Counted from the stretch's first letter, positions 2,097 through 60,265 are shown. The stretch is DNA of 64,000 bases from Patescibacteria group bacterium UBA6241 (GCA_002441425.1 DJWB01000001.1:15087-79086), one strand, 5' to 3'. Numbers and translations are program-made. Notes: generated from the sequence alone by a model not told the origin.

Positions 2097-3233
2097 ATGG
2101 TTAAAGAGACAAAGACCTTGGGCGAAAAGGTCCAGGAAGTCACGAACTGGTCCCTGGTGGACTGGTTGTCCGTGGTCTTCCCGCTGGTGTCGGCGTTCGC
2201 CACCTTCCACGGGGCGAACAAGCTGATCGGCAACAGCCTCTACGCCTTCGGCGTCGCAATCGTCGCCTTCTTCTTCATCGCGGCCTTCTATCGGTCGTAC
2301 CTGAAGTGGTATCCGTCGGCCAACGACAAGCAGAAGCGCAAGCTGCTGCTGCCGATGGTCGTCTTCGGCGTCTTCGCCATATGCCTGACCACACCGTTTT
2401 CGGTGGCCACCTTCGGTGGCGAGGTCGCGCTGCGCAAGGACTTCGAGCGGACGATCGCGACCGCAGAAGCGCGGACGAACCAGCGGATCGGCGACCTGAA
2501 CCGGGAGCTCGCGCTCTCGTCTTCGCTGGGCTCCTATGGTCGGCAATTCTCCGACCTGGCCCAGGCAGAAGCCGCCGGCTCCTTCACGGGCGTCAGCGGT
2601 CGCGGCGACGCGGCGGTCACCTTTGAGACGGTGGGCAGATCCCTGACGGCGATGAGCCGGCAGGTGGAAGCCAACCGTGCGGTCGTGGAGCGCCTGAAGG
2701 AGCAATCCAAGGCGATCATCCGCGACCTCCGCACCATCTCCTACCTGCGCGTCAGCCAGCAGGAGAAGGTCTCGCGGTTCGCCGCACGTCTGAACGATCT
2801 GAACGATCTGTTCGCCCAGATGGACGCCGCCTCAGTCCTGCCGTCGGTCGCGCAATCGGCCGGCAGCCTGGACATGGTCGCGAACCTGCGTTCGGGTGAG
2901 GCGGGCACGGACCTCGGTCAGCGCCAGTCGCAGACCATCGCCCGCGCCGGTGAGCTGGTGACCCGCGCACAGCAGGACATCAGCAAGACCACCGCCGACC
3001 TGACCAACCAGTCCGAGGAGCTGGCTCCGCTCGCCGTCATCGACGAGAGCGAGGCCATCTTCAAATACTGGCAGGTGATCATCTGGGCGTGGGCGGCCGC
3101 CATCGCTCTGGACTTCGCCCCGCTCCTGTTCCTGTTCATGCTCAGCCAATTCCACGGCATCGAGCGGACGCAGCGCCGGAGCGCGAAGAAGCCCAAGGAG
3201 GAGGACGGCAAGGTGACGCACCTGCGTCGCTAA
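2097..3233 (+). CDS. hypothetical membrane protein with a central coiled-coil region (3 N-terminal TMs, ~220-aa helical/coiled segment, C-terminal TM(s), basic tail), ~66% GC
   Basis: It is the longest ORF in a region where high GC opens ORFs in every frame. RBS GGAGAG lies 6 nt upstream, with promoter and terminator flanks. GC is ~20 points above its neighbours. Confidence 0.55.
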   Translation: MVKETKTLGEKVQEVTNWSLVDWLSVVFPLVSAFATFHGANKLIGNSLYAFGVAIVAFFFIAAFYRSYLKWYPSANDKQKRKLLLPMVVFGVFAICLTTPFSVATFGGEVALRKDFERTIATAEARTNQRIGDLNRELALSSSLGSYGRQFSDLAQAEAAGSFTGVSGRGDAAVTFETVGRSLTAMSRQVEANRAVVERLKEQSKAIIRDLRTISYLRVSQQEKVSRFAARLNDLNDLFAQMDAASVLPSVAQSAGSLDMVANLRSGEAGTDLGQRQSQTIARAGELVTRAQQDISKTTADLTNQSEELAPLAVIDESEAIFKYWQVIIWAWAAAIALDFAPLLFLFMLSQFHGIERTQRRSAKKPKEEDGKVTHLRR

Positions 3234-3280
3234 GTCGTCTCCTGCTCCTGTGAACGGATAGCTTCTAACGCCTACAAATG

Positions 3281-3316
3281 CCCCGGGGACCGAAAGGTTT
3301 CCGGGGTATTTCTTTT
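3281..3316 (+). terminator. rho-independent terminator (CCCCGGGGACC-GAAA-GGTTTCCGGGG + TATTTCTTTT)
   Basis: GC-rich hairpin followed by a T-rich tract immediately after the 2097..3233 stop codon. Confidence 0.55.
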
Positions 3317-3362: not shown

Positions 3363-5963
3363 ATGAAAAAGGGTGTGCAACTAACTCTGCTTGGACTGCT
3401 CAGCATGTCCTTCTTTTTTAGTGTTGTTCCGCAGGTGTTTGCCGAGTGGGAACTTGCGGGAAGCAACAGTCTTGCAGGCACTACAAACGTAGCACTTCCT
3501 ATTACAGATCTTCAGATAACGGGAAGCGGAACTGAACCAATTCCAGTGAAACTTGTTGTAACAAGTGGGACACTTGCGATGAGCCAAACCACCGGGCTCA
3601 CTTTTACAGGAGGAACCTCAGGATCAACATTGCAATTTAGTGGAACTCAAGCAAACGTAAATGCAGCGCTTGCAACACTTACGTATACAAGGAGTGGCAC
3701 CGGCTCAGATACGTTGGAAGTGTCTTTGGTGCGTCCTGGGGAAGTCTTCTTTGAAGAGAATGGACACTTGTATGAATACATTTCAGATGCGGGTACGTGG
3801 AATGCAGCAAAACCAAAAGCTGAAGCACTCACGAGATATGGGGCAACAGGATATCTTGCAACGATTCTTTCTTCTGCAGAGAATGCATTCGTAACGGCAC
3901 GTCTTCTTGGTGCGGGCTGGATGGGAGCGAGCGATTCTGAATCTGAAGGAACCTGGAAGTGGGTAACCGGTCCTGAGACAGGGACATCGTTCTGGTCAGG
4001 TACTGCAGGGGGAAGCACCATAGGTGGAAATTACGCTAACTGGGGATCAGGGGAACCAAACCAGTCGGGGGAAGAAGATTGCGGGCAGTTTCTCGCGGGA
4101 GGCACAGGCAAATGGAATGACCTTCCTTGTGGAAGTAGCAGCCTTGCAGGATACGTTGCAGAGTTCGGTGCGTCCGGAGCACTTCCTACTGTGGTAGCTA
4201 AGAACATCACTATTACTACGAGTGCACTCCCTGTGGTGAGCACACTCTCTCCAGCAGACAACGCAACTGGAGTAGCTATTAATGCAAACCTCGTAATTAC
4301 TTTTAGCAAAACAGTTTCAACAAGCACCGGGGAGATTGCTATTAGAAAAGTGAGCGATGATTCGCTTGTTGAAAGTATCGCGGTTACGGGTGGACTAATT
4401 TCAGGAAGCGGGTCAAACACCATAACCATTAATCCAAGCACCACGCTCGCAGAGAGTACGGCGTACTACGTAACTATCCCGAACACTGCGTTCAAGGATA
4501 GTCTAGACAATTTCTATACAGGTACTGCTGCGAGTACTACTTGGAATTTCACAACAGGAGACTTTACTGCACCCGCCCTAAGTGCCATTACGGCAACCAG
4601 CACTGCTACAACATCAGTAATATCTTGGATCACTGCTGAGAATGCTTCAACGAAAGTAGTGTTCGGACTCACTACTGCATATGGAACCACAACTCCAGAG
4701 ACAAATACTTCGTCACGTGTCACATCTCACGAAGTAACGCTCACTGGTCTCGTGCGTTGCGCAACATACCATTACGCAGTCGTGTCTAGAGATGCAAGTT
4801 CAAACGCAGCCACCTCAACAGATAGCACACTAAGAACAACAGGCTGTACGGCTGAATCAGCCCCTACTACCGCTACATCAACTGCAATAACAACCTCTTC
4901 AGGAGGATCCTCTCAACTTACTGAAAACAGCACTACTATTACGGTAGATGCACCCGCGGACTTTACTGATGAATCATCCTCAGTTGTTATTCAAGTGCAG
5001 GCAATTGCGGGCGATACAATTCTGGCTTCGCTCGGAAGACCACAGAGCGTTCCGAGAGAAGTTGGGACTATTGTGTTTGATGTAAAGGCAATCATTGATA
5101 ACACTACGGTCCTTGATTCATTTGATAGTCCGGTAACGATTACATACCAATACGCTGATGCAGATACTGCAGGATTAGATGAACCTACTTTTTGGTTGTA
5201 TCACTATCATGACGATGCCTGGGAAGCACTAGATAGTTGTACGATTAATACAGATACAAACACTATTAGCTGTACTACTCCAAACTTCTCCATCTTTGGA
5301 TTGTTTGGACAAGCACTCGCCGCAGACTCCTCTCGTACGCATTCATCTACACGAGTAGGCTGTAAAGATGTTGCTGCTCAGAACTACGATGCCTTTGTCT
5401 CACACCGGCAAGATCTCTGCGTGTACAAAGCAAGCGCTACCCAAGCCCAAACAAGTGCGTTCACTCGAGATCTTACTCTAGGATCAGTAGGTGAGGACGT
5501 GCAGAGACTGCAAGTCTATTTAAACAATCACGGCTTTACGCTTGCAGCTACTGGACTCGGGTCTCCCCAAAACGAGACAACTACATTTGGAGCTCTTACG
5601 AGAGATGCGCTGAGCAAGTTCCAAATAGCAAAGGGAATTACTCCAGCTGTAGGATATTTTGGACCGCTGACTCGTTCATCCATACTGGATATGGTTACAA
5701 CGCCAATAGTACAAAATACTACTTCTGCGCTACGTGATCTTGAAATGGGAATGAATGGGGAAGATGTACGTAAACTACAAGACTTTCTTATATCTAAGTC
5801 TTTCACTATTGCAGCAGGCGCAACAGGATATTTCGGCAGCCAAACAAAGGATGCATTAATTGCGTATCAAAAGGCAAGTGCTATTAGTCCTGCAGCAGGA
5901 TACTTTGGTGCCCAAACCCGAGCGTATATACTACAGACTAATAAGGAATCAGCTTGGTGGTAG
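3363..5963 (+). CDS. secreted multidomain surface protein: signal peptide, C-type-lectin-fold domain, Ig-like/FN3-like repeats, two C-terminal peptidoglycan-binding (PG_binding_1-like) repeats
   Basis: Signal peptide MKKGVQLTLLGLLSMSFFFSVVPQVFA. C-type-lectin signature WMGASD..GTWKW..GEPNQSGEEDC..GKWNDLPC. Ig-like repeat NATGVAINANLVITFSKTV. Tandem PG-binding repeats GEDVQRLQVYLNNHGF and GEDVRKLQDFLISKSF. Confidence 0.55.
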   Translation: MKKGVQLTLLGLLSMSFFFSVVPQVFAEWELAGSNSLAGTTNVALPITDLQITGSGTEPIPVKLVVTSGTLAMSQTTGLTFTGGTSGSTLQFSGTQANVNAALATLTYTRSGTGSDTLEVSLVRPGEVFFEENGHLYEYISDAGTWNAAKPKAEALTRYGATGYLATILSSAENAFVTARLLGAGWMGASDSESEGTWKWVTGPETGTSFWSGTAGGSTIGGNYANWGSGEPNQSGEEDCGQFLAGGTGKWNDLPCGSSSLAGYVAEFGASGALPTVVAKNITITTSALPVVSTLSPADNATGVAINANLVITFSKTVSTSTGEIAIRKVSDDSLVESIAVTGGLISGSGSNTITINPSTTLAESTAYYVTIPNTAFKDSLDNFYTGTAASTTWNFTTGDFTAPALSAITATSTATTSVISWITAENASTKVVFGLTTAYGTTTPETNTSSRVTSHEVTLTGLVRCATYHYAVVSRDASSNAATSTDSTLRTTGCTAESAPTTATSTAITTSSGGSSQLTENSTTITVDAPADFTDESSSVVIQVQAIAGDTILASLGRPQSVPREVGTIVFDVKAIIDNTTVLDSFDSPVTITYQYADADTAGLDEPTFWLYHYHDDAWEALDSCTINTDTNTISCTTPNFSIFGLFGQALAADSSRTHSSTRVGCKDVAAQNYDAFVSHRQDLCVYKASATQAQTSAFTRDLTLGSVGEDVQRLQVYLNNHGFTLAATGLGSPQNETTTFGALTRDALSKFQIAKGITPAVGYFGPLTRSSILDMVTTPIVQNTTSALRDLEMGMNGEDVRKLQDFLISKSFTIAAGATGYFGSQTKDALIAYQKASAISPAAGYFGAQTRAYILQTNKESAWW

Positions 5964-13730: not shown

Positions 13731-15272
13731 TTAGTTAGCTGCACTCGCCACCTCTACACTCTGTCCCTCAGAAAGTCCTCTCGCATCGCGTACGATACGA
13801 AGCTCGGGGGAAAGCTCGCTAAGAATCTCAATATGATCTCCGCGCACTTCTCCTACGGTAACTGAAACTGCTACAAGACGACTCTCTTCGTCAACGGTGT
13901 ATACGATGCGATCTCCCGCACGAAGCTTAACTGCTGAGAGAGGGAGGAGAATAGGCCCTTCGGTCTCAGGAAGCTCATTAGTCTCTGCAGCAAGATCTGG
14001 GAATGAAACATGAACAGACTGTCCGTTTACGAGCTCGCTTGCTCCTGTAACTGCAACATGAACTTCAATCTGCTTGGTAACAGGATCAAGAGCAGGAGAG
14101 ACAGAAGTGATAACTCCCTCGTATGTGTCTTCAACAAGTACTGCGCTGCCCGCGGCAAGGAGGTCGCGATCATTCTCAGATACGTACACTACAATTTCCA
14201 ATGCGCCGTTCTGCGCAACAGTAGCTACGTGTGTAAATGCTGTTACATAATCTCCAACACGGATAGGAAGGAAGTTAACTTGTCCGCCAATAGGAGCGCG
14301 TACTACCGTACGCTCAAGGTTTGCTTGTGCGGCACGTAAGCTTCCGAGTGCCTGCTTAACTGAAGCATCTGCGCTTGCAGTAGCGCCGGTACTTCCACTG
14401 CGGTAACTACTCTTTGCAGTAGTAATGCTAGAAAGCACGCCCGCAACATTAGCGCGTGCAGTTGCGAGTGCTGAGAGCTGTGCACTTGTAGCGCGTGAGT
14501 TGTTTTGATTTGCCGCTGCAGCAAGCTCGTTCAAGAAAGTCTCAATAGTACGAGTGTATGTCTCTGCTTCTGAAAGAAGAGTCTGTGGGTCACGACTGTC
14601 TACAGAACCCAAAGAGGATTCCCATTGGCCCATAAGAGTCTGAATGCGTGCGCGCTCTCTGGAAAGATGCACTGCAGTGTCATGATCTGGATACAAAAGA
14701 AGATCCGGACCAACAGCTGTTGGGTTTCCATAGAACGTATCAACGTATAGCTCAAGAGAGGTGTCTACAGTTGTGTATGCACTGCGGTATGCATTTCGTG
14801 CAGTTATCTGAGTATCAGGAAGAGATTGTGCACTGCGAGCTGCAACAGCTGCTTCATATGCTCCTTCAGCCTGCAATACACTTGCGCGCTCTGCAGCATT
14901 CTCAAGTTCGGCAATAACAAATCCTGCAGGAACACTCTTTCCAAGAGCAGTACGTACGGCACGTACGGTTCCTCCGGTCTGTGCGAGGATGTTTGCCTCA
15001 GTTACGGAACGAACAGTCCCGATAAGGTTAACGGAACTACCGCCACCAGAAAGCTCGCGTACAGTCTGAAGTGTAACGGTGCGCCCCTTTGCAGAAGGTG
15101 CATCAGTTGCGCCTGAGCGCGCGAAGGCAACACCCCCAATAAGAAGTATGAGAAGTAAGGCAGCAATAGCTACCTGCTGCCAAAGACGAAGTGAGCGATA
15201 GCGCTTCCAGAGCGCCTTACTTCGTGTGGGAATGCTAGTAACAAAAGGCCGTATACGCGATAAGATAGACAT
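13731..15272 (-). CDS. RND efflux periplasmic adaptor (membrane-fusion protein, HlyD-like)
   Basis: N-terminal TM, coiled-coil hairpin region and beta-barrel/lipoyl-like segments. Tightly coupled upstream of the RND gene. Confidence 0.65.
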   Translation of the reverse strand: MSILSRIRPFVTSIPTRSKALWKRYRSLRLWQQVAIAALLLILLIGGVAFARSGATDAPSAKGRTVTLQTVRELSGGGSSVNLIGTVRSVTEANILAQTGGTVRAVRTALGKSVPAGFVIAELENAAERASVLQAEGAYEAAVAARSAQSLPDTQITARNAYRSAYTTVDTSLELYVDTFYGNPTAVGPDLLLYPDHDTAVHLSRERARIQTLMGQWESSLGSVDSRDPQTLLSEAETYTRTIETFLNELAAAANQNNSRATSAQLSALATARANVAGVLSSITTAKSSYRSGSTGATASADASVKQALGSLRAAQANLERTVVRAPIGGQVNFLPIRVGDYVTAFTHVATVAQNGALEIVVYVSENDRDLLAAGSAVLVEDTYEGVITSVSPALDPVTKQIEVHVAVTGASELVNGQSVHVSFPDLAAETNELPETEGPILLPLSAVKLRAGDRIVYTVDEESRLVAVSVTVGEVRGDHIEILSELSPELRIVRDARGLSEGQSVEVASAAN

Positions 15273-21907: not shown

Positions 21908-23344
21908 GTGCTCAGCATTCTCAACATGGATACAAAGAAAGATACGCGTTCACGCGGCCCACGCCGTACGAACGCACCCCAGCGCTCTCGTTTTGGAGGA
22001 CGCGATACTAGAACTAACCCTGCATACGAGGCAGGCATGCGCTTTGCGCTTGAAAACGGCTTTAAGCGTCCTATGACCGCTGCTGTTGAACAGCGCCGTT
22101 CAAGTGGAGGCTCTCGTGGTACTGGCCCTCGCCGCTCAAGTGGTGGACGCCCAGAACGCGGAACTGGCTCACGCCCAGAACGCTCTGGAAGTGCTCGCCC
22201 TGCACGTGGTGGAGGTCGTGGATACCAGGAGATGGCAGTAGACCTCTCAAAGCTCGTGAACAAAGCTCAGCCAGCTGAGGAGGTGGAGGCATATGCATCA
22301 ACACATGCATTCGCAGACTTTGCTATTGATGAACGCCTTAAGGCGAACATTGCGAGCAAGGGATACATAACCCCTACTCCAATTCAGGATCAGTCAATCC
22401 CACACGTACTTCTTGGAAAGGACGTAGTTGGTATTGCAAACACAGGAACAGGAAAGACTGCAGCATTCCTTATCCCCCTTATTGATAAAGTACTTAAGTT
22501 CCGTGCACTAGGAAATGATGAGCGTGTGCTCGTTATGGTACCTACACGTGAGCTTGCGATTCAGATTGAGTCTGAGTTCTTTGGCTTTGCTAAGGGACTT
22601 GGTCTTGCGTCTGTAACCTGCGTTGGTGGAGCAAACATTGTTCCCCAGATTCGTGTACTCAAGCGAAACCCAGCATTTGTAATTGGAACTCCAGGACGTC
22701 TTAAGGACCTTATGGAGCGCCGTGATCTAGACCTCACACACTTCGGAACTGTTGTGCTTGATGAGGCAGATCGCATGCTAGACATGGGATTCATTGATGA
22801 CATGCGCTTTATCCTAAGCAAGATGCGCAGCGAGCGTCACACACTCTTCTTCTCCGCAACAATGTCTCGCGACATTCAGGCACTCATTGGTGCTTTCCTA
22901 AAGGATCCTATAGCAGTGTCTGTTAAGACCCGTGAGACATCACACACAATTGATCAGGACGTAGTGAAAGTGCATCACTCACAGAAGTTTGATCGTTTGG
23001 TTGAGCTCTTGAAGGAGCCAGAGTTTGAAAAGACTCTCGTCTTTGGACGTACCAAGCATGGTGTTGAGCGCATGGCGAAAGACTTGCGACAGCAGGGCAT
23101 TCGCGCTGACTCTATTCACGGAAACAAGACACACAGCGCTCGCCAAAAGGCTCTCATTGCCTTCAAGCGTAACGATGTTCGTGTTCTTGTAGCAACTGAT
23201 GTTGCTGCACGTGGTCTAGACATCTCTGGTGTAACACACGTGATTAACTACGACCTCCCGTCTACGTACGAGGACTATACACACCGTATTGGCCGTACAG
23301 GACGCGCAGGAACTACTGGAAAGGCACTTACCTTCATTCCGTAA
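21908..23344 (+). CDS. DEAD-box ATP-dependent RNA helicase with Arg/Gly-rich N-terminal extension
   Basis: Q-motif region, AxTGTGKT, PTRELA, DEAD (VLDEADRMLDMGF), SAT, HRIGRTGR. N-terminal ~120 aa low-complexity R/G/S. Exact start uncertain. Confidence 0.8.
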   Translation: MLSILNMDTKKDTRSRGPRRTNAPQRSRFGGRDTRTNPAYEAGMRFALENGFKRPMTAAVEQRRSSGGSRGTGPRRSSGGRPERGTGSRPERSGSARPARGGGRGYQEMAVDLSKLVNKAQPAEEVEAYASTHAFADFAIDERLKANIASKGYITPTPIQDQSIPHVLLGKDVVGIANTGTGKTAAFLIPLIDKVLKFRALGNDERVLVMVPTRELAIQIESEFFGFAKGLGLASVTCVGGANIVPQIRVLKRNPAFVIGTPGRLKDLMERRDLDLTHFGTVVLDEADRMLDMGFIDDMRFILSKMRSERHTLFFSATMSRDIQALIGAFLKDPIAVSVKTRETSHTIDQDVVKVHHSQKFDRLVELLKEPEFEKTLVFGRTKHGVERMAKDLRQQGIRADSIHGNKTHSARQKALIAFKRNDVRVLVATDVAARGLDISGVTHVINYDLPSTYEDYTHRIGRTGRAGTTGKALTFIP

Positions 23345-24745: not shown

Positions 24746-25335
24746 CCAAAACACAAAGCGCATCATTCTTGGGCTTTCTATTTATTGTACTTACGTATTG
24801 TGCGTGGCAATTTCCTGAAGCACTCCGTGCCATAGATATTCCTATCGCATATGCGCTAGCCCCGCTTCAAACACTTGCAAGTATTCAGTTGTTTTTAGTT
24901 ATTACTGCACTTGCGGGAGTGCTTGGCACATTTCTTATTGCTGCGGGCGCAGTTTATTTCCTGAGGAACCATCTTCGCTATGCGCGATTCCTCGTGTATG
25001 TATTGCTTGGGAGTACTCTCAGTGCAAATTTAGTAAAAATACTCATTGCACGAATAAGACCAGAGCCGCTTCTCTGGTTTGATCCACTTCTTACATTCTC
25101 TTTTCCAAGTGGGCATGCAACGTCCGCGATGGCACTTTTTGGATCTATTGCTTTTATCAGCTCCCGGCTTGCGAGAGGGTACACACGTATATTTGTGTGC
25201 ACCGTCTCTCTTGCACTCGTAGTACTTATTGGTCTCAGCAGACTTATGCTGGGAGCGCACTTCTTCTCAGATGTGCTTGCGGGCTACATACTCGGCCTCT
25301 TTTGGATTGTGTTGTTCCTCCCAAAGAAATCTTAA
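24742..25335 (+). CDS. PAP2-family (type 2 phosphatidic acid / undecaprenyl-PP-like) phosphatase
   Basis: KxxxxxxRP (KILIARIRP), PSGH, SRxxxxxHxxxD (SRLMLGAHFFSD) motifs. Six TMs. Confidence 0.7.
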   Translation: MTKTQSASFLGFLFIVLTYCAWQFPEALRAIDIPIAYALAPLQTLASIQLFLVITALAGVLGTFLIAAGAVYFLRNHLRYARFLVYVLLGSTLSANLVKILIARIRPEPLLWFDPLLTFSFPSGHATSAMALFGSIAFISSRLARGYTRIFVCTVSLALVVLIGLSRLMLGAHFFSDVLAGYILGLFWIVLFLPKKS

Positions 25336-25997
25336 TCTTCTTTCTCCTTAACGCCGCGCAAGAATAGAAGCGCACCAGCTCCAACGATAAGCGCACCAGC
25401 TAACGGCACACCAACTGCAATAAAGAGAGAAGAGTTTGAAGGATCAAGCAGAGACCCAAACAGCACTGCTGCAGAGGAGACTGCTATTGATATTGGGAGG
25501 TACAAGAGTATGAACTTCCAATACGGAAGAGAGGAGAGACCTGCGCCGTAGGCGATGAGCTCAGGAAGCGCAAAGCAGGTAAGGCACATGTGGATGAAGC
25601 CCTTAGTCGTTCCCACATGGCGCACTACCTTTGCCAGAGTGCTTCGCTCCTTTCCAACTATAAAGCGGTTAACCATAGGGTATCCGAATATGCGGCTTAT
25701 GGTGAAAGCAATAGTTATGCCTAAGAAATCTCCTGCAACGATATATAAAATACCTGGCCAGAATCCGAACAAAAGCCCTACTAACGGATAGAGTGGGGAA
25801 CCCGAGAGAGGTGCAACAACAATAGTTGATGCCTTGAGTGCAATAAGAATGAGCGGAGCAACAGCGCCTGAGGTAAGCACCAGCTCCTGTAGCTGCTTAA
25901 TATCAACAAAGACCGTAAGGAGGAGGAGCAATGCAACGGTTATTCCAATACCAATAACGTTTAGCTGCTCGGTTACTTTTGCTTTGAGTTGTTCCAT
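25332..25997 (-). CDS. TVP38/TMEM64 (DedA-like) family membrane protein
   Basis: VAPLSGSPLYPLVGLLFGFWPG and the overall DedA-like topology. Confidence 0.55.
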   Translation of the reverse strand: MEQLKAKVTEQLNVIGIGITVALLLLLTVFVDIKQLQELVLTSGAVAPLILIALKASTIVVAPLSGSPLYPLVGLLFGFWPGILYIVAGDFLGITIAFTISRIFGYPMVNRFIVGKERSTLAKVVRHVGTTKGFIHMCLTCFALPELIAYGAGLSSLPYWKFILLYLPISIAVSSAAVLFGSLLDPSNSSLFIAVGVPLAGALIVGAGALLFLRGVKEKED

Positions 25998-32609: not shown

Positions 32610-34541
32610 CTAAACTCCGATGAGAACAGGAATAACCATAGGCGCCTTGTTGGTTCTCGTGAAGAGATATCCGGCCATGGTGTCTGAGAGTGCGTTCTTT
32701 ACGTAATCCAGATCAACCGGGTTCATACCTTCAGTTGAATCCTCAACCGTCTTCTTAATCAAAAGACGAGCCTGGTTAAGCATTTCCTGATTCTCACGAA
32801 GATATACGAATCCGCGAGAGATAATATCTGGAGACTTGCGAAGCTTTCCTGTCTTAAGGTTAACGGTTGCGATGATAACAAACATACCGTCCTTGGCGAG
32901 CATCTGGCGGTCACGAATAACCACCTCCTGCAGGTCGCCAATAGAGAATCCGTCCACTACAAGTGGTGCTGAAGGCACCTTCTGCTTGTGGTAGTTAAGC
33001 TTCTCTCCACCTTCCTCAATATCAATAACCATACCGTTATCGGCAAGGATGATTGATTCGCGAGGGCGTCCTGCTTGCTCAACTGCACGCGCATGACTTG
33101 CAGTCATTGAGTAGTAGCCGTAGGCAGGCATGAAGTACTTAGCGCCAACTTGCTGGTTAATCCAAATCAGCTCGCCAGTGTTTCCGTGTCCTGTTGAGTG
33201 CACGTCACTTGAGCGGTAGTGAATGAGGGTTACACCGTTGCGGTACAAGTTGTCCTTTAGCTTCTGCACTGAGATTTCGTTCCCAGGAATAACAGAAGAG
33301 GAAAGCACGATAGTATCGCGGTTGTTCAGCACAATGCTTTTGTGCTGCTTGGTTGCAATACGCATAAGCGCAGCAAACTCTTCTCCCTGAGCTCCGGTTG
33401 AGAGAATAACAATTTTGTCTGGAGGATAATCTCCAATCTCCTGAGAGCTGATGATCGTGTCCTTCTTAACAGTAAGAAGTCCTGTCTTCTGTGCAATCTC
33501 AAGGTTGGTCTTAATAGATCGTCCTTCAGTGATTACTTTCTTTCCTAGTGACTCAGAGATCTCAATGATGCGTACCATGCGCTCAAACTGAGACGCGAAG
33601 GTTCCGATAATGAGTCGCCCCTTAACGGTACGAATAATCTCTTCAAGAGTCTCATGCACTTTGCGCTCAGGCACTGAGAATCCGTCACGTTCAGCGTTAG
33701 TTGAGTCTGCAATGAAGAGCAAGTTCTTTTGCTTTCCAAGTGCTCCCCATTTCTTTGCTTCAGTTTCGGTTGGAATACCGTTCTCATGGTCAAGCTTAAG
33801 GTCTCCTGTTGCAATAACGTTTCCGTATGGTGTCTCAATCGCAATACCCATTGAGTCTGGGATTGAGTGTGTAACCGGGAAGAACTGCACTTTTGTGGAG
33901 CCAATAGTCATGGTTGATCCAGGCTCAACAGTCACAATATTTAGTTCTGGTTGATCAGGATATTCTTCCTGTCGCTTCTTGATCATCACTGCAGAAAGGT
34001 TCTGCGTGTAGATGGTCGGATTACCCATACGATTCATAAGGAAGGGAATACCTCCAATATGGTCTAGGTGTCCGTGTGTGATGAATACTCCGCGAATGCG
34101 GTCTTGGTTCATCTCAAGGTAGCGGGTGTTTGGAAGGACGTAATCAACGCCAGGAGAGGTGTCCTCAGACACAAACTGGAATCCAACGTCAAAGACAAAG
34201 ATGTCGCCATTGGTTTCAATGGTGAACATGTTGCGTCCAACCTCTTCAACTCCTCCAAGAGGAACAACACGGACCACGTCCTTTCCAGGAGCCTCAGGGA
34301 AGTAATCCGGAGCCTTCTTAACAGGAGCAGGATGATTCCCGGTCTGTGGACCGCCTGGGCGGCGCATAGTGCGCTTGGCTGGTCGTCCGCTGCGAGGAGC
34401 CCCTCCTTCTTTTCCTCGTGTACGAGGACGTTGAGGGCGGGCACCATCAGTGCGTCCCTCTGTGCGAGGAGCGGCACTTGGTGCAGAGTGCGCTGCGCGG
34501 CCGTGTGGGGCAGGCGCCGGCGCTGGTGCGGGTGCTGACAT
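32610..34541 (-). CDS. rnj: ribonuclease J (beta-CASP metallo-beta-lactamase RNase) with Ala/Pro/Arg-rich N-terminal extension
   Basis: HGHLDHIGG motif, beta-CASP motifs, C-terminal domain. The N-terminal ~100 aa are low-complexity. Confidence 0.8.
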   Translation of the reverse strand: MSAPAPAPAPAPHGRAAHSAPSAAPRTEGRTDGARPQRPRTRGKEGGAPRSGRPAKRTMRRPGGPQTGNHPAPVKKAPDYFPEAPGKDVVRVVPLGGVEEVGRNMFTIETNGDIFVFDVGFQFVSEDTSPGVDYVLPNTRYLEMNQDRIRGVFITHGHLDHIGGIPFLMNRMGNPTIYTQNLSAVMIKKRQEEYPDQPELNIVTVEPGSTMTIGSTKVQFFPVTHSIPDSMGIAIETPYGNVIATGDLKLDHENGIPTETEAKKWGALGKQKNLLFIADSTNAERDGFSVPERKVHETLEEIIRTVKGRLIIGTFASQFERMVRIIEISESLGKKVITEGRSIKTNLEIAQKTGLLTVKKDTIISSQEIGDYPPDKIVILSTGAQGEEFAALMRIATKQHKSIVLNNRDTIVLSSSVIPGNEISVQKLKDNLYRNGVTLIHYRSSDVHSTGHGNTGELIWINQQVGAKYFMPAYGYYSMTASHARAVEQAGRPRESIILADNGMVIDIEEGGEKLNYHKQKVPSAPLVVDGFSIGDLQEVVIRDRQMLAKDGMFVIIATVNLKTGKLRKSPDIISRGFVYLRENQEMLNQARLLIKKTVEDSTEGMNPVDLDYVKNALSDTMAGYLFTRTNKAPMVIPVLIGV

Positions 34542-34652
34542 AGCAATAATAATTAATTTTAAATAATAAACATTAGATGCACACCGTGTTTTGGTGTCAG
34601 TGCGCAGTAGATAATCGGGAGAACGGAATTCTCTAAACTATCAACTGAGCAC

Positions 34653-51318: not shown

Positions 51319-51330
51319 GGAAGCGCACAT

Positions 51331-51361
51331 AAAACCCCGTAGCAGAAAGCTACGGGGTTTT
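51331..51361 (+). terminator. rho-independent terminator (AAAACCCCGTAG-CAGAAAG-CTACGGGGTTTT)
   Basis: Perfect stem and T-run after the glutaredoxin stop. Confidence 0.7.
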
Positions 51362-51380
51362 ATGCTAGTCTCGTATTATT

Positions 51381-51452
51381 CCCCTCGTAGCTCAATGGAT
51401 AGAGCATCTCACTCCTAACGAGACGATGTAGGTCCGATTCCTGCCGAGGGGA
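51381..51452 (+). tRNA. tRNA-Arg (anticodon CCT)
   Basis: Manual fold: acceptor CCCCTCG/CGAGGGG, D-arm GCTC/GAGC, anticodon loop CTCCTAA, 4-nt variable loop, T-loop TCCGATT. No encoded CCA. Confidence 0.65.
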
Positions 51453-51498
51453 CAAATGAAAAGACCGCCTTTTTTTGGGGCGGTCGGAGAAGATGTCG

Positions 51499-51642
51499 TT
51501 ACTTCTCTTCCGGTCTCAGGTCGCCATTGCGACCCTCCAAAAGAGCGTCCACGACGTCTCGTTGCGCTTCCGGATCCTGGACAGGTTCCGGAGCAGGCGG
51601 CGGCGAAGGTTCTCGCGGTCCGTCAAACACAGGTTCAGTCAC
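51499..51642 (-). CDS. GC-rich micro-ORF, GTG-initiated 47-aa Pro/Glu-rich peptide (VTEPVFDGPREPSPPPAPEP...). A diverged copy is at 56817..56945
   Basis: I translated it codon by codon by hand. SD-like GAGGGA 11 nt upstream. DNA-level similarity to 56817..56945 (GTGAC..GACGGACC..ACCTTCsyCsCCsCC). The plus-strand ORFs in the table at 51456-51768 appear to be GC artefacts. Confidence 0.3.
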   Translation of the reverse strand: MTEPVFDGPREPSPPPAPEPVQDPEAQRDVVDALLEGRNGDLRPEEK

Positions 51643-51749
51643 TTTGTTTCAGCTCCCTCGTGCATACTTCGCATCCCGAGTGGACACGAAGAATATAGTT
51701 TTAGCCAAAATGGTATTTTTGTAAACCCCGATGCTATACTTTCTTATAT

Positions 51750-52043
51750 ATGCCCCCACAGGAACTAGAGCGACTCGTTAAAGAAACACGCCAGCTTGCA
51801 GAAGATAATAATCGTTTGCTCCGCCGCATTCGCAGAGATGCATTGCTTGGGTTTGTGGCAAAAATTGTGCTCTGGCTTGTTGTTCTTGGAGTCCCGCTCT
51901 TCTTCTTGGGCACATATCTTGGACCTATTATGGACGCTTTGTCAGGGTCTGGAAGTGAGAGCTTTAAGCCGGGACTTTTTGGCCTTCCCTCAGAGGAGCA
52001 AGTTAACAAGCTCATAGAGCAGTACCAGTCTCAGTACCAATAG
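51750..52043 (+). CDS. small membrane protein (hypothetical)
   Basis: 97 aa, one TM (IVLWLVVLGVPLFFLGTYLGPI), between two tRNAs. Confidence 0.4.
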   Translation: MPPQELERLVKETRQLAEDNNRLLRRIRRDALLGFVAKIVLWLVVLGVPLFFLGTYLGPIMDALSGSGSESFKPGLFGLPSEEQVNKLIEQYQSQYQ

Positions 52044-52181: not shown

Positions 52182-53267
52182 ATGAAGACCGTGCGAAAGG
52201 TACTTGCTTGGGCGCAAAGAAATGAACGACACCTCGGAGGGATCGTTTTCTTCTTTGGTTTCCTTACAGACCTCCTCACATTCACGCTGCTAGATATTTC
52301 TATACTGAACTTTGTGTTCGGAGGTTATTTGGTTGCCACATACATTGCAGTCTTTTTAGTGCATCTTGTTTCTAAGGAAGTTGCTCGCCCTTCAGTCTTC
52401 AGGCGCTCAGTGCGAGTTCTGTTGCCGCTTGTTGCGCAGTACCTAATTGCAAATATGCTCTCTGGGTTTCTTATCTTTTATACAAAGAGCTCTGTGCTCT
52501 TTGTATCTTGGCCGTTCATTATTCTCCTCGGTCTCGTATTCCTCGGAAACGAATGGTTCAGGACATACAAGGATCGCTTGATATTCCTTGCAACACTTCT
52601 TTTCTTTACCACATACGCATATACAATCTTTGCGCTCCCGCTTTTTGTACATACGCTAGGTCCCTTGGTATTCCTTGGAAGTACTGCAATTTCAGTTGGT
52701 ATCTTTGCCGCATTTCTTTTCCTTCTTTGGAGGACAGGACCAAAGCGATTGCAGGGAAGTCTCTTGCCTACGATTGGAACTTCGCTTGCCGTTCTGATTG
52801 TTATGGTCTCAAGCTATTTTACGGGTCTTATTCCTCCAATTCCCTTAACACTTAAGGAGTCCGGTATATATCACACACTTACCCGATCCGAGGGTTCCTA
52901 TGTCTTGCATGGAGAGAAGAATAAAGAGTGGTGGGATCCAAGACCACAGACACTGCATGTTATTGAGGGAGAGACGGTCTATGCATATACAGCAGTATTT
53001 GCACCTATACAGTTTGGTACTTCAGTAGTGCACCGATGGGAATACTACGATCAGAGTACGAAGAAATGGACATCTCGTGGAATCATTAGCTTTCCTATTG
53101 CAGGAGGACGAGCGGGAGGATACAGAGGATACTCTGAACAAACTAATCTAACGTCAGGGAGTTGGCGTGTCCGTGTTGAAACCTCAAACGGGCAAACAAT
53201 CGGGCAGATACCTTTCTCTGTAGAGCGTGTGCCAGCGTTGCCTCCGCTTCGTAAAGAGGTGAAATAA
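52182..53267 (+). CDS. polytopic membrane protein with C-terminal extracytoplasmic beta-rich domain (hypothetical)
   Basis: ATG 52182 with RBS AAGAGGGG. ~7 TMs, then a ~150-aa soluble domain. Confidence 0.45.
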   Translation: MKTVRKVLAWAQRNERHLGGIVFFFGFLTDLLTFTLLDISILNFVFGGYLVATYIAVFLVHLVSKEVARPSVFRRSVRVLLPLVAQYLIANMLSGFLIFYTKSSVLFVSWPFIILLGLVFLGNEWFRTYKDRLIFLATLLFFTTYAYTIFALPLFVHTLGPLVFLGSTAISVGIFAAFLFLLWRTGPKRLQGSLLPTIGTSLAVLIVMVSSYFTGLIPPIPLTLKESGIYHTLTRSEGSYVLHGEKNKEWWDPRPQTLHVIEGETVYAYTAVFAPIQFGTSVVHRWEYYDQSTKKWTSRGIISFPIAGGRAGGYRGYSEQTNLTSGSWRVRVETSNGQTIGQIPFSVERVPALPPLRKEVK

Positions 53268-53298
53268 GAAAAGACCCGCGATGTGCGGGTCTTTTCTT
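53268..53298. terminator. bidirectional terminator (AGAAAAGACCCGCG-ATGT-GCGGGTCTTTTCT)
   Basis: Perfect hairpin flanked by A- and T-runs, between convergent genes. Confidence 0.65.
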
Positions 53299-53803
53299 AT
53301 CCTGCCTTAACGCGCAGCTTTGTTTGCCTTGCCTTATCTAGCTTCGGAAGAATGATGGAGAGCAACCCGTCCTTAGCTCCTGCAGAAGAGTTGTCTACAT
53401 CAACTTCTTGGGGAAGGAGAATAGTTCGTGAGAAAGATCCCCAGAATAGTTCGCGGGTGAAGTAGTCTGAATCAAGTACCGAGTCTCGCTCGTCTCGTGA
53501 GCCCTCAATAACAACCATATCGCGGCTTATAGATACATTGAGCTCGTCTGGGCGCACCCCTGCTACGAATGCGCGAATGACGATCTCATTAGGAGTCTGA
53601 TACACATCAACTGGAAGCTGACCCTCGCTGTGCTCTTCTTCAACAGTTGAAAGAATACTGCGAGAAGGCAGGTCTGAAGAGACAGCAGTGCGCACAGGTG
53701 CTTGCATGCCTGACTGCATTGGCAAGTCGTCATCAAAGCCATCGTACTGGTCATCCATAGGAGCGGAGCCAGAGAGTCTATCGAAGAATGATCGTTTTTT
53801 CAT
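53297..53803 (-). CDS. Hsp20/alpha-crystallin family small heat-shock protein
   Basis: Alpha-crystallin domain motifs (VDVYQTPNEIVIRAFVAGVRPDEL..., GLLSIILPK). Confidence 0.75.
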   Translation of the reverse strand: MKKRSFFDRLSGSAPMDDQYDGFDDDLPMQSGMQAPVRTAVSSDLPSRSILSTVEEEHSEGQLPVDVYQTPNEIVIRAFVAGVRPDELNVSISRDMVVIEGSRDERDSVLDSDYFTRELFWGSFSRTILLPQEVDVDNSSAGAKDGLLSIILPKLDKARQTKLRVKAG

Positions 53804-56708: not shown

Positions 56709-56816
56709 TACGTTTGAATATAACAAATAAGCGCTTGAAAGGCTTCTCTTGTAGACATTGATTGATGAGTAGTTTTGTGTTACTATTTACGTACACACTC
56801 TTGAAAGGAGGTGCTT

Positions 56817-56945
56817 GTGACGCAGACCCCCCAGGATCAATACGACGGACCCATGGAGGACCTTCCTCCGCCCCAAGGGCCGCCTTCCAATGAAAAGGGG
56901 CACGAGCAACCCTCACCCGAGGGAGGCTCACACTACGGTGAGTAA
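56817..56945 (+). CDS. GC-rich micro-ORF, GTG-initiated 42-aa Pro/Glu-rich peptide (VTQTPQDQYDGPMEDLPPPQGPP...). A diverged copy is at 51499..51642
   Basis: Near-consensus SD AAGGAGG 5 nt upstream of GTG 56817. ~62% GC in an otherwise AT-richer intergenic region between valS and tsaD. Shares DGPxExxPPP and nucleotide blocks with the 51499..51642 copy. Confidence 0.35.
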   Translation: MTQTPQDQYDGPMEDLPPPQGPPSNEKGHEQPSPEGGSHYGE

Positions 56946-56979
56946 GATCTTTCCGCCCGCGTCAACTGATGCGGGTTTT

Positions 56980-58155
56980 TCATACCAACGATAGGTTTCC
57001 GTCAGCAGATAAAGACGCAGGATCTGAATACTTACCTTGAAGCGCACGATAGTATCCTGCGATTCCTATCATAATTGCATTGTCTGTTGTGAACATCGGA
57101 GCAGGAATACGCAGTTCAACCTCTGGGTGCTCTTGTGCGCACTTTTCTGTGAATACGCGTTGAATATTTGTGTTTGCTGAAACACCTCCTCCAAGTACGA
57201 GTGTCTGCGCATTTGTTTGGAGGAGCGCTCTGGAAGTTTTTGCAAAAAGCACATCAGCAACTGCATCTTCAAACTCTCTTGCGAGACCCTTCTTCTCAGA
57301 TTCAGAAAGCTCCGGGTGTGCCTTTAGGAAATACAGAACTGAAGTCTTGAGACCGGAGAAGGAGAAGTCTGTATGCGGGTCATGAATCATGGGACGGGGA
57401 AGGGTAACAGGAGCTTGGATATCTTCAGCTCTCGCTGCCTCTGCGAGACGCGATACCTCAGGTCCGCCTGGATAGGGTAGCGAAAGCATACGCGCTACTT
57501 TGTCGTATGCTTCTCCAACAGCATCGTCTCGTGTATGCCCAATCAATTCATATGAGAGCCAATCACGCATAGAAATAAGTTCCGTGTGTCCTCCAGAAAT
57601 AAGAAGTGCGAGCACAGGCAATTGAAGCTCTGAGATTACAAACTCTTCTCCCTCCGTACGCACCAGTCCAGACAAGAGATGTCCTTCCATGTGATTCACC
57701 CCGATAACAGGAATATCCCACAGTATAGAAAGAGCACGTGCGAAATTAACTCCAACCCATAGTGCAGGCGCAAGGCCAGGACCATGCGTAACTGCTATAG
57801 CGTCAACCAAAGGCTTGGCTGTGGTTTCAAGAAATGCAGTGAGCGCAGCGTTTAGCTCTGGTTCGCGAACAAGAAGTTCAGAGAGTTCTGCTTTCTGGTC
57901 CTCTGACAAAGTATTTGCATGAGACTCTAGGAGTCCTGCCTGAGAAAGTGCTTCGTGTAGAAGCGGCACAAGATTCTTTGCATGTTCTCTTTTAGCAAGT
58001 GCGGGGAATACCCCTCCGTATTCGCGGTGTATATCTACTTGAGACAAAAGTGCATTCCCAAGAATACGAAAACGCGCTGAATCTACTGATCCTTCAGCGT
58101 TAAGTATTGAGACCGCAGTCTCGTCACAAGATGTTTCAATCGAGAGGAGCTTCAT
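56980..58155 (-). CDS. tsaD: tRNA N6-adenosine threonylcarbamoyltransferase TsaD (Kae1/YgjD family)
   Basis: MKLLSIETSCDETAVSIL N-terminus, metal-binding HxxGH (VNHMEGH), C-terminal Gly-rich motifs. Start overlaps the upstream DHH gene end by 20 nt. Confidence 0.8.
   Translation of the reverse strand: MKLLSIETSCDETAVSILNAEGSVDSARFRILGNALLSQVDIHREYGGVFPALAKREHAKNLVPLLHEALSQAGLLESHANTLSEDQKAELSELLVREPELNAALTAFLETTAKPLVDAIAVTHGPGLAPALWVGVNFARALSILWDIPVIGVNHMEGHLLSGLVRTEGEEFVISELQLPVLALLISGGHTELISMRDWLSYELIGHTRDDAVGEAYDKVARMLSLPYPGGPEVSRLAEAARAEDIQAPVTLPRPMIHDPHTDFSFSGLKTSVLYFLKAHPELSESEKKGLAREFEDAVADVLFAKTSRALLQTNAQTLVLGGGVSANTNIQRVFTEKCAQEHPEVELRIPAPMFTTDNAIMIGIAGYYRALQGKYSDPASLSADGNLSLV

Positions 58156-58990: not shown

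Positions 58991-60265
<1,275 letters not shown>

Follow-up and report, generated by a model that had tools for sequence, protein, structure and literature searches.

Two probable genes for acidic, proline-rich small proteins at fixed positions in a narrow clade of Paceibacteria

The p1 and p2 loci

We analyzed two short open reading frames (ORFs) in a stretch of 64,000 nucleotides (nt) from Patescibacteria group bacterium UBA6241 (GCA_002441425.1 DJWB01000001.1:15087-79086), hereafter referred to as the window, which has an overall guanine-plus-cytosine (GC) content of 48.3% and derives from an ultra-small genome of approximately 0.6 Mb belonging to the candidate phyla radiation (CPR). Its sequence recurs without differences in a JGI contig and within a 608-kb ENA contig. 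The first ORF, p1, lies on the minus strand at 51499-51642, and the second, p2, on the plus strand at 56817-56945. An earlier note on this DNA had described p1 as a GC-rich patch beside a tRNA-Arg gene and p2 as its diverged second copy, and had proposed either that an integrated element had left them behind or that they formed a small mobile repeat, with an unannotated small-protein family as the alternative.

The coding sequence of p1 comprises 47 codons from a GTG start to a TAA stop and specifies the product MTEPVFDGPREPSPPPAPEPVQDPEAQRDVVDALLEGRNGDLRPEEK, which is exactly the peptide quoted in the earlier note and is acidic (isoelectric point (pI) 4.2), hydrophilic, and rich in proline (21%). 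Its GC content over 144 nt was 60.4% against the 48.3% of the window, in good agreement with the patch of approximately 60% that had been described, and 3% of the 144-nt stretches of the window were equally GC-rich. The convergent neighbor of p1 is the gene for tRNA-Arg(CCT) (51381-51453, plus strand; identified by ARAGORN and by Rfam with 60.1 bits), and the distance of 45 nt between the p1 stop codon and the 3′ end of this tRNA confirmed the reported position. The Shine-Dalgarno (SD)-like site noticed upstream was also verified as GAGGGAG (51653-51659, minus strand), located 10 nt 5′ of the GTG and present in all orthologs as either GAGGGAG or CAGGGAG.

Further upstream, a 5′-leader hairpin with a stem of 9-10 bp and a 5-nt loop (51667-51691, minus strand) is situated between this SD site and promoter-like blocks. 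In an RNAalifold analysis of five orthologs, the hairpin was represented by 9 pairs, none of which was broken and 4 of which showed compensatory double changes. Several of its pairs are G-U pairs that would be C-A mismatches on the opposite strand, and thus the hairpin belongs to the p1-sense RNA, where alone these pairs can form. The promoter-like block (51692-51725, minus strand) consists of AACACTATAT, which is -10-like (51692-51702), and the -35-like hexamer TTTACA (51720-51725). These blocks are kept in a seven-locus alignment and lie within a 108-nt divergent spacer shared with the promoter of the adjacent gene p97; the hexamers are regarded here as a putative p1 promoter. At the other end, an intrinsic terminator (51455-51485, minus strand; stem 51463-51485, U-run 51459-51462) directly adjoins the 3′ end of the tRNA-Arg gene and folds with -13 kcal/mol (z = -3.4). 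In all p1 orthologs, this position is occupied by a hairpin and an ensuing U-run, although the stem sequences differ; the stems were folded one sequence at a time because the MAFFT alignment mis-aligned them.

The organization of p2 is comparable. Its coding sequence comprises 42 codons with a GTG start and a TAA stop, has a GC content of 62.0%, and specifies MTQTPQDQYDGPMEDLPPPQGPPSNEKGHEQPSPEGGSHYGE, a product that is likewise acidic (pI 4.2), hydrophilic, and composed of 21% proline. An SD site, AAGGAGG (56805-56811, plus strand), is located 5 nt 5′ of the GTG and is kept in the two loci that carry p2 orthologs, L004 and L018. An extended -10-like box, TGtTACTAT (56778-56786, plus strand), which corresponds to TGtTTAAAT in L004 and TGtTACAAT in L018, may serve as a putative promoter. 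An intrinsic terminator (56955-56981, plus strand), detected by a terminator scan, adjoins the convergent tsaD gene at its stop codon. It is made up of a G+C-rich stem of 9 bp and a subsequent TTTTT and folds with -16.1 kcal/mol (z = -4.3), and an equivalent hairpin with a U-run is found in both L004 and L018. Two assemblies, L001 and L002, are identical to the window; in L002, p2 is annotated as a gene of 42 amino acids (aa), which corresponds to P0003, while it has been overlooked in some assemblies.

Since each ORF is followed by its own terminator and a convergent gene, p1 and p2 are each monocistronic and have no downstream gene to regulate. A role as leader peptide or attenuator was thus rejected, the terminator following at once and being succeeded by the convergent tRNA-Arg gene in the case of p1 and by tsaD in the case of p2. 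The GC excess of both ORFs resides mainly in the first codon position, where GC amounted to 0.83 in p1 and 0.74 in p2 versus 0.60 in long genes, and therefore reflects the codons for Pro, Glu, Asp, Gly, Ala, and Arg. Inspection of both sequences by eye found no hydrophobic stretch fit for a signal peptide or a membrane segment. AlphaFold2 predicted a helix at residues 24-38 of p1, with the remainder as coil (mean predicted local distance difference test score 76), and no secondary structure for p2.

Orthologs, coding constraint, and origin of p1 and p2

Related loci were collected by scans with the neighboring valyl-tRNA synthetase and DUF2914 proteins (88 loci) and by look-ups with p97 and the p1-like proteins P0001 and P0002 (a further 11). 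The closest relatives of the window all carry the label Patescibacteria or Paceibacteria, and L003 is 94% identical to the window overall. Orthologs of p1 with 45-47 aa were found at the same site between tRNA-Arg and p97 in L003, L004, L018, L084, L092, and L098, and orthologs of p2 with 42-44 aa between valS and tsaD in L004 and L018.

The p1 family shares an N-terminal M-T-E and, near the C-terminus, the motif D-x-V-[DE]-x-L-L-[EN]-G-R-N-G, part of which is covered by the predicted helix, while the C-terminus itself is variable (EEK, ED, or DE). Within the LLEGRNG portion of this motif, the Leu and Gly codons differ synonymously between species. In p2, DGPMEDLPPP is invariant among the window, L004, and L018, and the G-S-x-x-G-E end is conserved as well. 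With regard to a possible polyproline stalling peptide dependent on EF-P, the triple proline is invariant in p2 and not conserved in p1, which has SPPPA in the window, LPPA in L004, APPQ in L084, and no such stretch in L018.

The substitution pattern was that of protein-coding sequences in both families. Between the window and L003, p1 differs by 4 substitutions, three of which are synonymous. The ratio of nonsynonymous to synonymous substitution rates (dN/dS) was 0.11-0.28 for p1 and 0.15 for p2, and the proposed frame had the lowest dN/dS among the six frames in each informative pair of either family. The third codon position was variable at 38 of 43 sites in p1, versus 27 and 25 at the other positions, and the corresponding numbers for the three positions of p2 were 18, 14, and 36 of 42. 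The frames are intact in all six distinct p1 and three distinct p2 sequences, every insertion or deletion is codon-sized, and p1 begins at a single aligned site with either GTG or ATG.

These features are those expected of two independent monocistronic genes, and we consider it probable, judging from the sequence comparisons, that p1 and p2 encode small proteins of 47 and 42 residues. Their maintenance under purifying selection in a genome of approximately 600 kb further argues for a real function. Several observations, however, weigh against this interpretation. The family samples are small, with six distinct p1 and three distinct p2 sequences; dS was saturated for the distant pairs, and the close pair L084-L092 gave an uninformative dN/dS of 0.73. 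The antisense frame that has p1's wobble positions in common also showed a dN/dS below 1 (0.30-0.47), and the strand assignment thus rests also on the SD site, the start codon, the terminator, and the G-U pairs. In L084 and L092, the stems of the terminators had stabilities not above those of shuffled sequences. Finally, if the conserved TATATT were the -10 box of p1, transcription would start within the 5′ arm of the leader hairpin, which renders the promoter assignment uncertain.

The block DHH-tsaD-valS-prsW-hsp20-DUF2914-p97-tRNA-Arg-grx-lepA is kept in approximately 80 Paceibacteria loci, in most of which the spacer between tsaD and valS is 40-60 nt long. In L036, L039, L086, and L087, tRNA-Arg is separated from p97 by approximately 25 nt and p1 is lacking. 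As the outgroups keep the synteny without p1 and p2, both are lineage-specific gains of approximately 270 nt each, and the comparison shows them as acquisitions of one narrow Paceibacteria clade that have held fixed positions since. No similarity to the inserts was detected in the outgroup spacers examined for precursor sequences (L042, L005, L006, and L014).

Other lineages hold different inserts at the same places. The tsaD-valS spacer contains such inserts in L010 (9373-9885), L042 (4602-5081), L045 (1639-2139), and L049 (8922-9488), and the spacer between grx/tRNA-Arg and p97 does so in L030, L046, L098, L010, L012, L045, and L090. They include unrelated-looking ORFs of 160-190 aa, one of 212 aa, and one of 150 aa. 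Judging from this distribution, the two spacers are gain-prone spots within an otherwise rigid syntenic backbone.

Searches for relatives and known families

Profile searches with p1 and p2 against Pfam, NCBIfam, and the PDB identified no family, even at E ≤ 10 in the case of Pfam; the PDB matches were rejected as sums of weak repeat matches. The Rfam search at E ≤ 1 returned two tRNAs and nothing at p1 or p2, and scans of viral contigs with the p1 and p2 alignments found no relatives. A direct protein search with p1 yielded no candidate, and an exact look-up of p1 was without a record because the opposite strand is called as the gene. In a profile search of 5.8 billion proteins, p1 retrieved P0001 and P0002 alone and p2 retrieved solely the window's own p2. 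An exhaustive hidden Markov model (HMM) search of 1.84 billion cluster representatives likewise recovered the p1 family, together with three proteins that were rejected as homologs. Among these, P0005 has propeller repeats with recurring LLEDREGRIW, and P0004, whose sequence was not inspected, matched through 11 stretches. The third, P0006 (341 aa), contains five 44-aa tandem repeats and was regarded as a low-complexity or repeat artifact; its repeat, IEPFEGDERREPH...HDAVDAV, is loosely p1-like in length and in two short motifs, with E = 6e-6 summed over 4 stretches. The 99 related loci (approximately 1.5 Mb) were translated in six frames, and an HMM search of the resulting 40,574 ORFs found no further members or copies of either family.

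Alternative readings of the two loci

The earlier note had favored the reading that the patches are remnants of an element integrated at the 3′ end of tRNA-Arg or copies of a small mobile repeat. It is true that p1 lies directly at the tRNA 3′ end where outgroups without p1 have the next gene within approximately 25 nt, that both spacers vary among other lineages, where the inserted genes are different ones, and that the GC content and SD usage of p1 and p2 are atypical for the genome. The direct repeats that integration at the tRNA should have left were nevertheless absent: a single occurrence of the terminal 15-21 nt of tRNA-Arg was seen across the window, also when up to 3 mismatches were allowed, and no flanking direct or inverted repeats and no terminal inverted repeats were found. 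There is no integrase, the insert of approximately 270 nt holding p1 alone, and the two loci, whose DNA similarity is marginal, are the sole ones in the related loci searched. An inert integration scar would moreover not show the protein-level purifying selection evident from the dN/dS values. Fixed syntenic sites, purifying selection, and the lack of attachment sites, integrase, further copies, and viral kin together cause the mobile-element reading to fail; the integrated-element version is favored by nothing beyond position, and we regard the whole as highly improbable. What the note had offered as its alternative, an unannotated small-protein family, proved to be essentially right, except that p1 and p2 are two distinct families, or at most very diverged paralogs with an N-terminal motif in common, and not duplicates of a single element.

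If the loci were non-coding, acting as small RNAs or as antisense or terminator modules, the open frames would be a by-product of GC content; all frames are indeed fairly open in the GC-rich stretch, and the unit resembles a small RNA in having a terminator and a conserved hairpin besides its promoter-like block. This reading is nevertheless quite unlikely: the substitutions show three-nucleotide periodicity and a single frame gave the lowest dN/dS, the conserved SD site is properly spaced from a conserved start at which GTG and ATG interchange, the indels are multiples of three, and the amino-acid motifs are retained across synonymous changes. Rfam gave no match, and in the folding, which covered the sequences on either side of the ORF, conserved structure was seen in the leader hairpin and the terminator alone, both of them simple hairpins. 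At the first locus, the real gene could instead be an 80-codon ORF with an ATG start on the plus strand (51456-51698), which exceeds p1 in length, appears in public gene calls, including those of L001 and L002 (9707-9949 in both), and is partly open in L004. Openness is uninformative as to strand, however, because all frames are open in such a GC-rich stretch. The start of the 80-codon ORF sits in the terminator hairpin directly 3′ of the tRNA and has no SD site, and L003 has a 1-nt deletion 14 nt past its ATG. The sites of greatest variability coincide with its second codon positions, dN/dS was approximately 1.1 and 2.5 in the two antisense frames without wobble positions in common with p1, one of which is its own, and identity to L004 was 47% in its frame versus 65% for p1. 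In the L084 lineage, gene callers pick the p1 strand (P0001 and P0002). The 80-codon ORF is thus probably spurious, and that it should be the real gene at this locus is scarcely credible.

Shine-Dalgarno usage in the window

The pairing energies with the anti-SD sequence were -13.2 kcal/mol for p2 and -8.2 kcal/mol for p1, which ranked first and second among 48 genes of the window, whereas the median of the 48 was -2.9 kcal/mol, about the level of the background, as evaluated at assumed start sites and with an assumed anti-SD sequence. The majority of the genes are thus without an SD site. In 13 of the 48 genes, a TAnnnT (-10-like) box ends 4-13 nt 5′ of the start codon, which suggests that leaderless or very short-leader mRNAs may be widespread in the window. 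The gene starts looked at include those at 3363, 13731-15272, 17873, 25332-25997, 41091, 51750, 58991-60247, and 61259, and the operon-internal start of groEL is also without an SD site. These data suggest that p1 and p2 initiate translation in a mode different from that of the neighboring genes, and the strong SD sites support the view that the two have arisen from one source or are regulated alike.

Relationship between p1 and p2

We assessed the claim that p2 is a second copy of p1. A GTG-initiated ORF of 42 codons is indeed present at 56817-56945, while its description as a copy is weakly supported: the best local DNA alignment of p1 and p2 spans 30 columns, and 16 of 500 shuffles scored equally. 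The sequences give no support for a DNA repeat present in two copies. At the peptide level, the best alignment covers 15 residues, FDGPREPSPPPAPEP versus YDGPMEDLPPPQGPP, with equal scores in 35 of 2000 shuffles (p ~0.02), and the comparison of the two profiles by hhalign gave P = 6e-4 and a probability of 29% over 23 N-terminal columns. The likeness is confined to the N-terminal T-E-x-P-x-[FY]DGPxE..PPP motif, and the C-terminal halves are unrelated.

The two families may be very diverged paralogs, at chances that we take to be about even. That they are instead unrelated, the likeness arising from a common acidic, proline-rich composition, is nearly an even possibility, and it draws on the unrelated C-terminal halves, the marginal DNA alignment, the modest hhalign probability, and the p1 of the L084 lineage, which is without the FDGP and PPP motifs and is not similar to p2 (p = 0.35-0.83). 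Opposed to this are the observations that, among the 40,574 ORFs, the best non-self HMM matches of each family include the other (E 0.2 to 9), that the score of the window p1 against the L018 p2 was reached by none of 2000 shuffles, and that [FYW]DGP occurs in the six frames of the window in p1 and p2 alone. The two also have an unusual architecture in common, with the top two SD sites of the 48 genes, GTG starts, and terminators of their own, and they occur in the same clade wherever this could be checked.

Neighboring genes and other features of the window

The gene p97 (51750-52043, plus strand) encodes a predicted 97-aa membrane protein that is conserved across many Paceibacteria and matched no Pfam or NCBIfam family. 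Its ATG is located 9 nt 3′ of the extended -10 box TGCTATACT, and owing to this proximity the p97 mRNA is probably leaderless. Two inverted repeats, each with 16 perfectly matched base pairs, a 5-nt loop, and shoulders rich in A/T, look like bidirectional terminators; one lies after grx (51328-51364) and the other between DUF2914 and hsp20, which are convergent (53264-53300).

Elsewhere in the window, the GC-rich blocks 20-664 and 2106-3313 reach up to 74% GC versus 48% overall and span a gene of the OMP-decarboxylase family and a 378-aa ORF (2097-3233) without a Pfam match; they may represent foreign or compositionally odd DNA. Two further GC-rich patches correspond to low-complexity N-terminal extensions, namely that of RNase J (34247-34566, minus strand; MSAPAPAPAPAPHGRAAH...) and an Arg-rich one of a DEAD-box helicase (22017-22292, plus strand).

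Discussion

The compositions and structure models suggest that the products of p1 and p2 would be acidic microproteins of the cytoplasm, disordered for the most part, with short motifs for the binding of partners, and chains so short make an enzymatic domain impossible. The likely binding motif of p1 would be its C-terminal helix with D-x-V-[DE]-x-L-L-[EN]-G-R-N-G, and that of p2 the invariant [FY]DGPMEDLPPP, a possible polyproline-II ligand. By analogy with the 5′ stabilizers of mRNA in Firmicutes, the leader hairpin probably protects the p1 mRNA from 5′-end-dependent decay, depending on where transcription truly starts; a gene for RNase J is present in the window.

A possible lead to a partner came from Hsp20 (53297-53803, minus strand), residues 16-32 of which contain a class-wide motif, KKRSFF[DE]RLSG...[YF]D[AGS]F[DE]D[DE]. 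In the window this reads DDQYDGFDDDLPMQSG and resembles QDQYDGPMEDLPPPQG of p2. The similarity between p2 and the Hsp20 N-terminus reached p = 0.0017 for the window p2, was not significant for the p2 of L004 and L018, and is treated as a lead only. One could imagine that p1 and p2 were recently born or acquired, with their own route of initiation through a strong SD site and GTG against a background that is otherwise SD-less and largely leaderless, and that their motifs dock onto a conserved partner, a speculative scenario to which we assign a low probability. The partner in that case may be Hsp20, through its N-terminal YDGFDDDLP, or a protein of the organism's host. If true, this would offer an episymbiont in which the birth of genes and the mimicry of motifs could be conveniently studied.

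Regarding p1 and p2 as small-protein genes has more immediate consequences. In public gene calls, p1 is overlain by an 80-aa ORF on the wrong strand, and p2 is skipped in some assemblies, so that the annotation needs correction. Two new small-protein families would be added for a phylum with reduced genomes rich in lineage-specific genes of unknown role, and these strong-SD genes amid SD-poor, leaderless-looking neighbors offer a testable handle on translation initiation in Patescibacteria. Beyond these points, p1 and p2 would be ordinary orphan small genes.

Orphan genes of this kind have been cataloged on a large scale. According to the AGNOSTOS study (PMC9132574), the phylum has 54,343 gene clusters that are lineage-specific and whose function is unknown, most of which are genus- or species-specific, and the same work lists 12,313 high-quality clusters of proteins of at most 50 aa, 66% of which are of unknown function. 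Like the orphan clusters, p1 and p2 are short, have no Pfam family, and show an approximately genus-level range in a CPR lineage, although p1 in the lineage of the window differs from the cataloged genes in not being called, the opposite strand being called instead.

With respect to translation initiation, p1 and p2 are comparable to the rare SD-led genes such as rpsU of Bacteroidia, having the strongest and conserved SD sites amid background-level pairing. In Bacteroidia, rpsU is SD-led although the genomes make no use of SD sites elsewhere. In contrast to rpsU, p1 and p2 have no link to ribosomal proteins.

A resemblance to Pup and UBact was also considered. These are prokaryotic ubiquitin-like tags with a C-terminal G-G-Q/E, and p1 and p2 are likewise short, acidic, and disordered; in addition, p1 has a C-terminal helix and p2 ends in G-E in three species. 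The p2 end, however, is [HY]-G-E rather than G-G-Q/E, and the C-terminus of p1 is variable. The Pfam scan at E ≤ 10 gave no match to a Pup profile, and there is no ligase within 10 kb, as far as the annotated neighborhood, the sole region examined, is concerned.

Functional parallels may be Sda (46 aa) and MciZ (40 aa), small regulatory proteins of Bacillus subtilis that act by partner binding. The products of p1 and p2 differ from these in being far more acidic and proline-rich and mostly disordered, and no similarity in sequence or structure was seen. In their size, predicted solubility, and stand-alone monocistronic arrangement, however, the two are similar to Sda and MciZ, which we adopt as the working model for p1 and p2.

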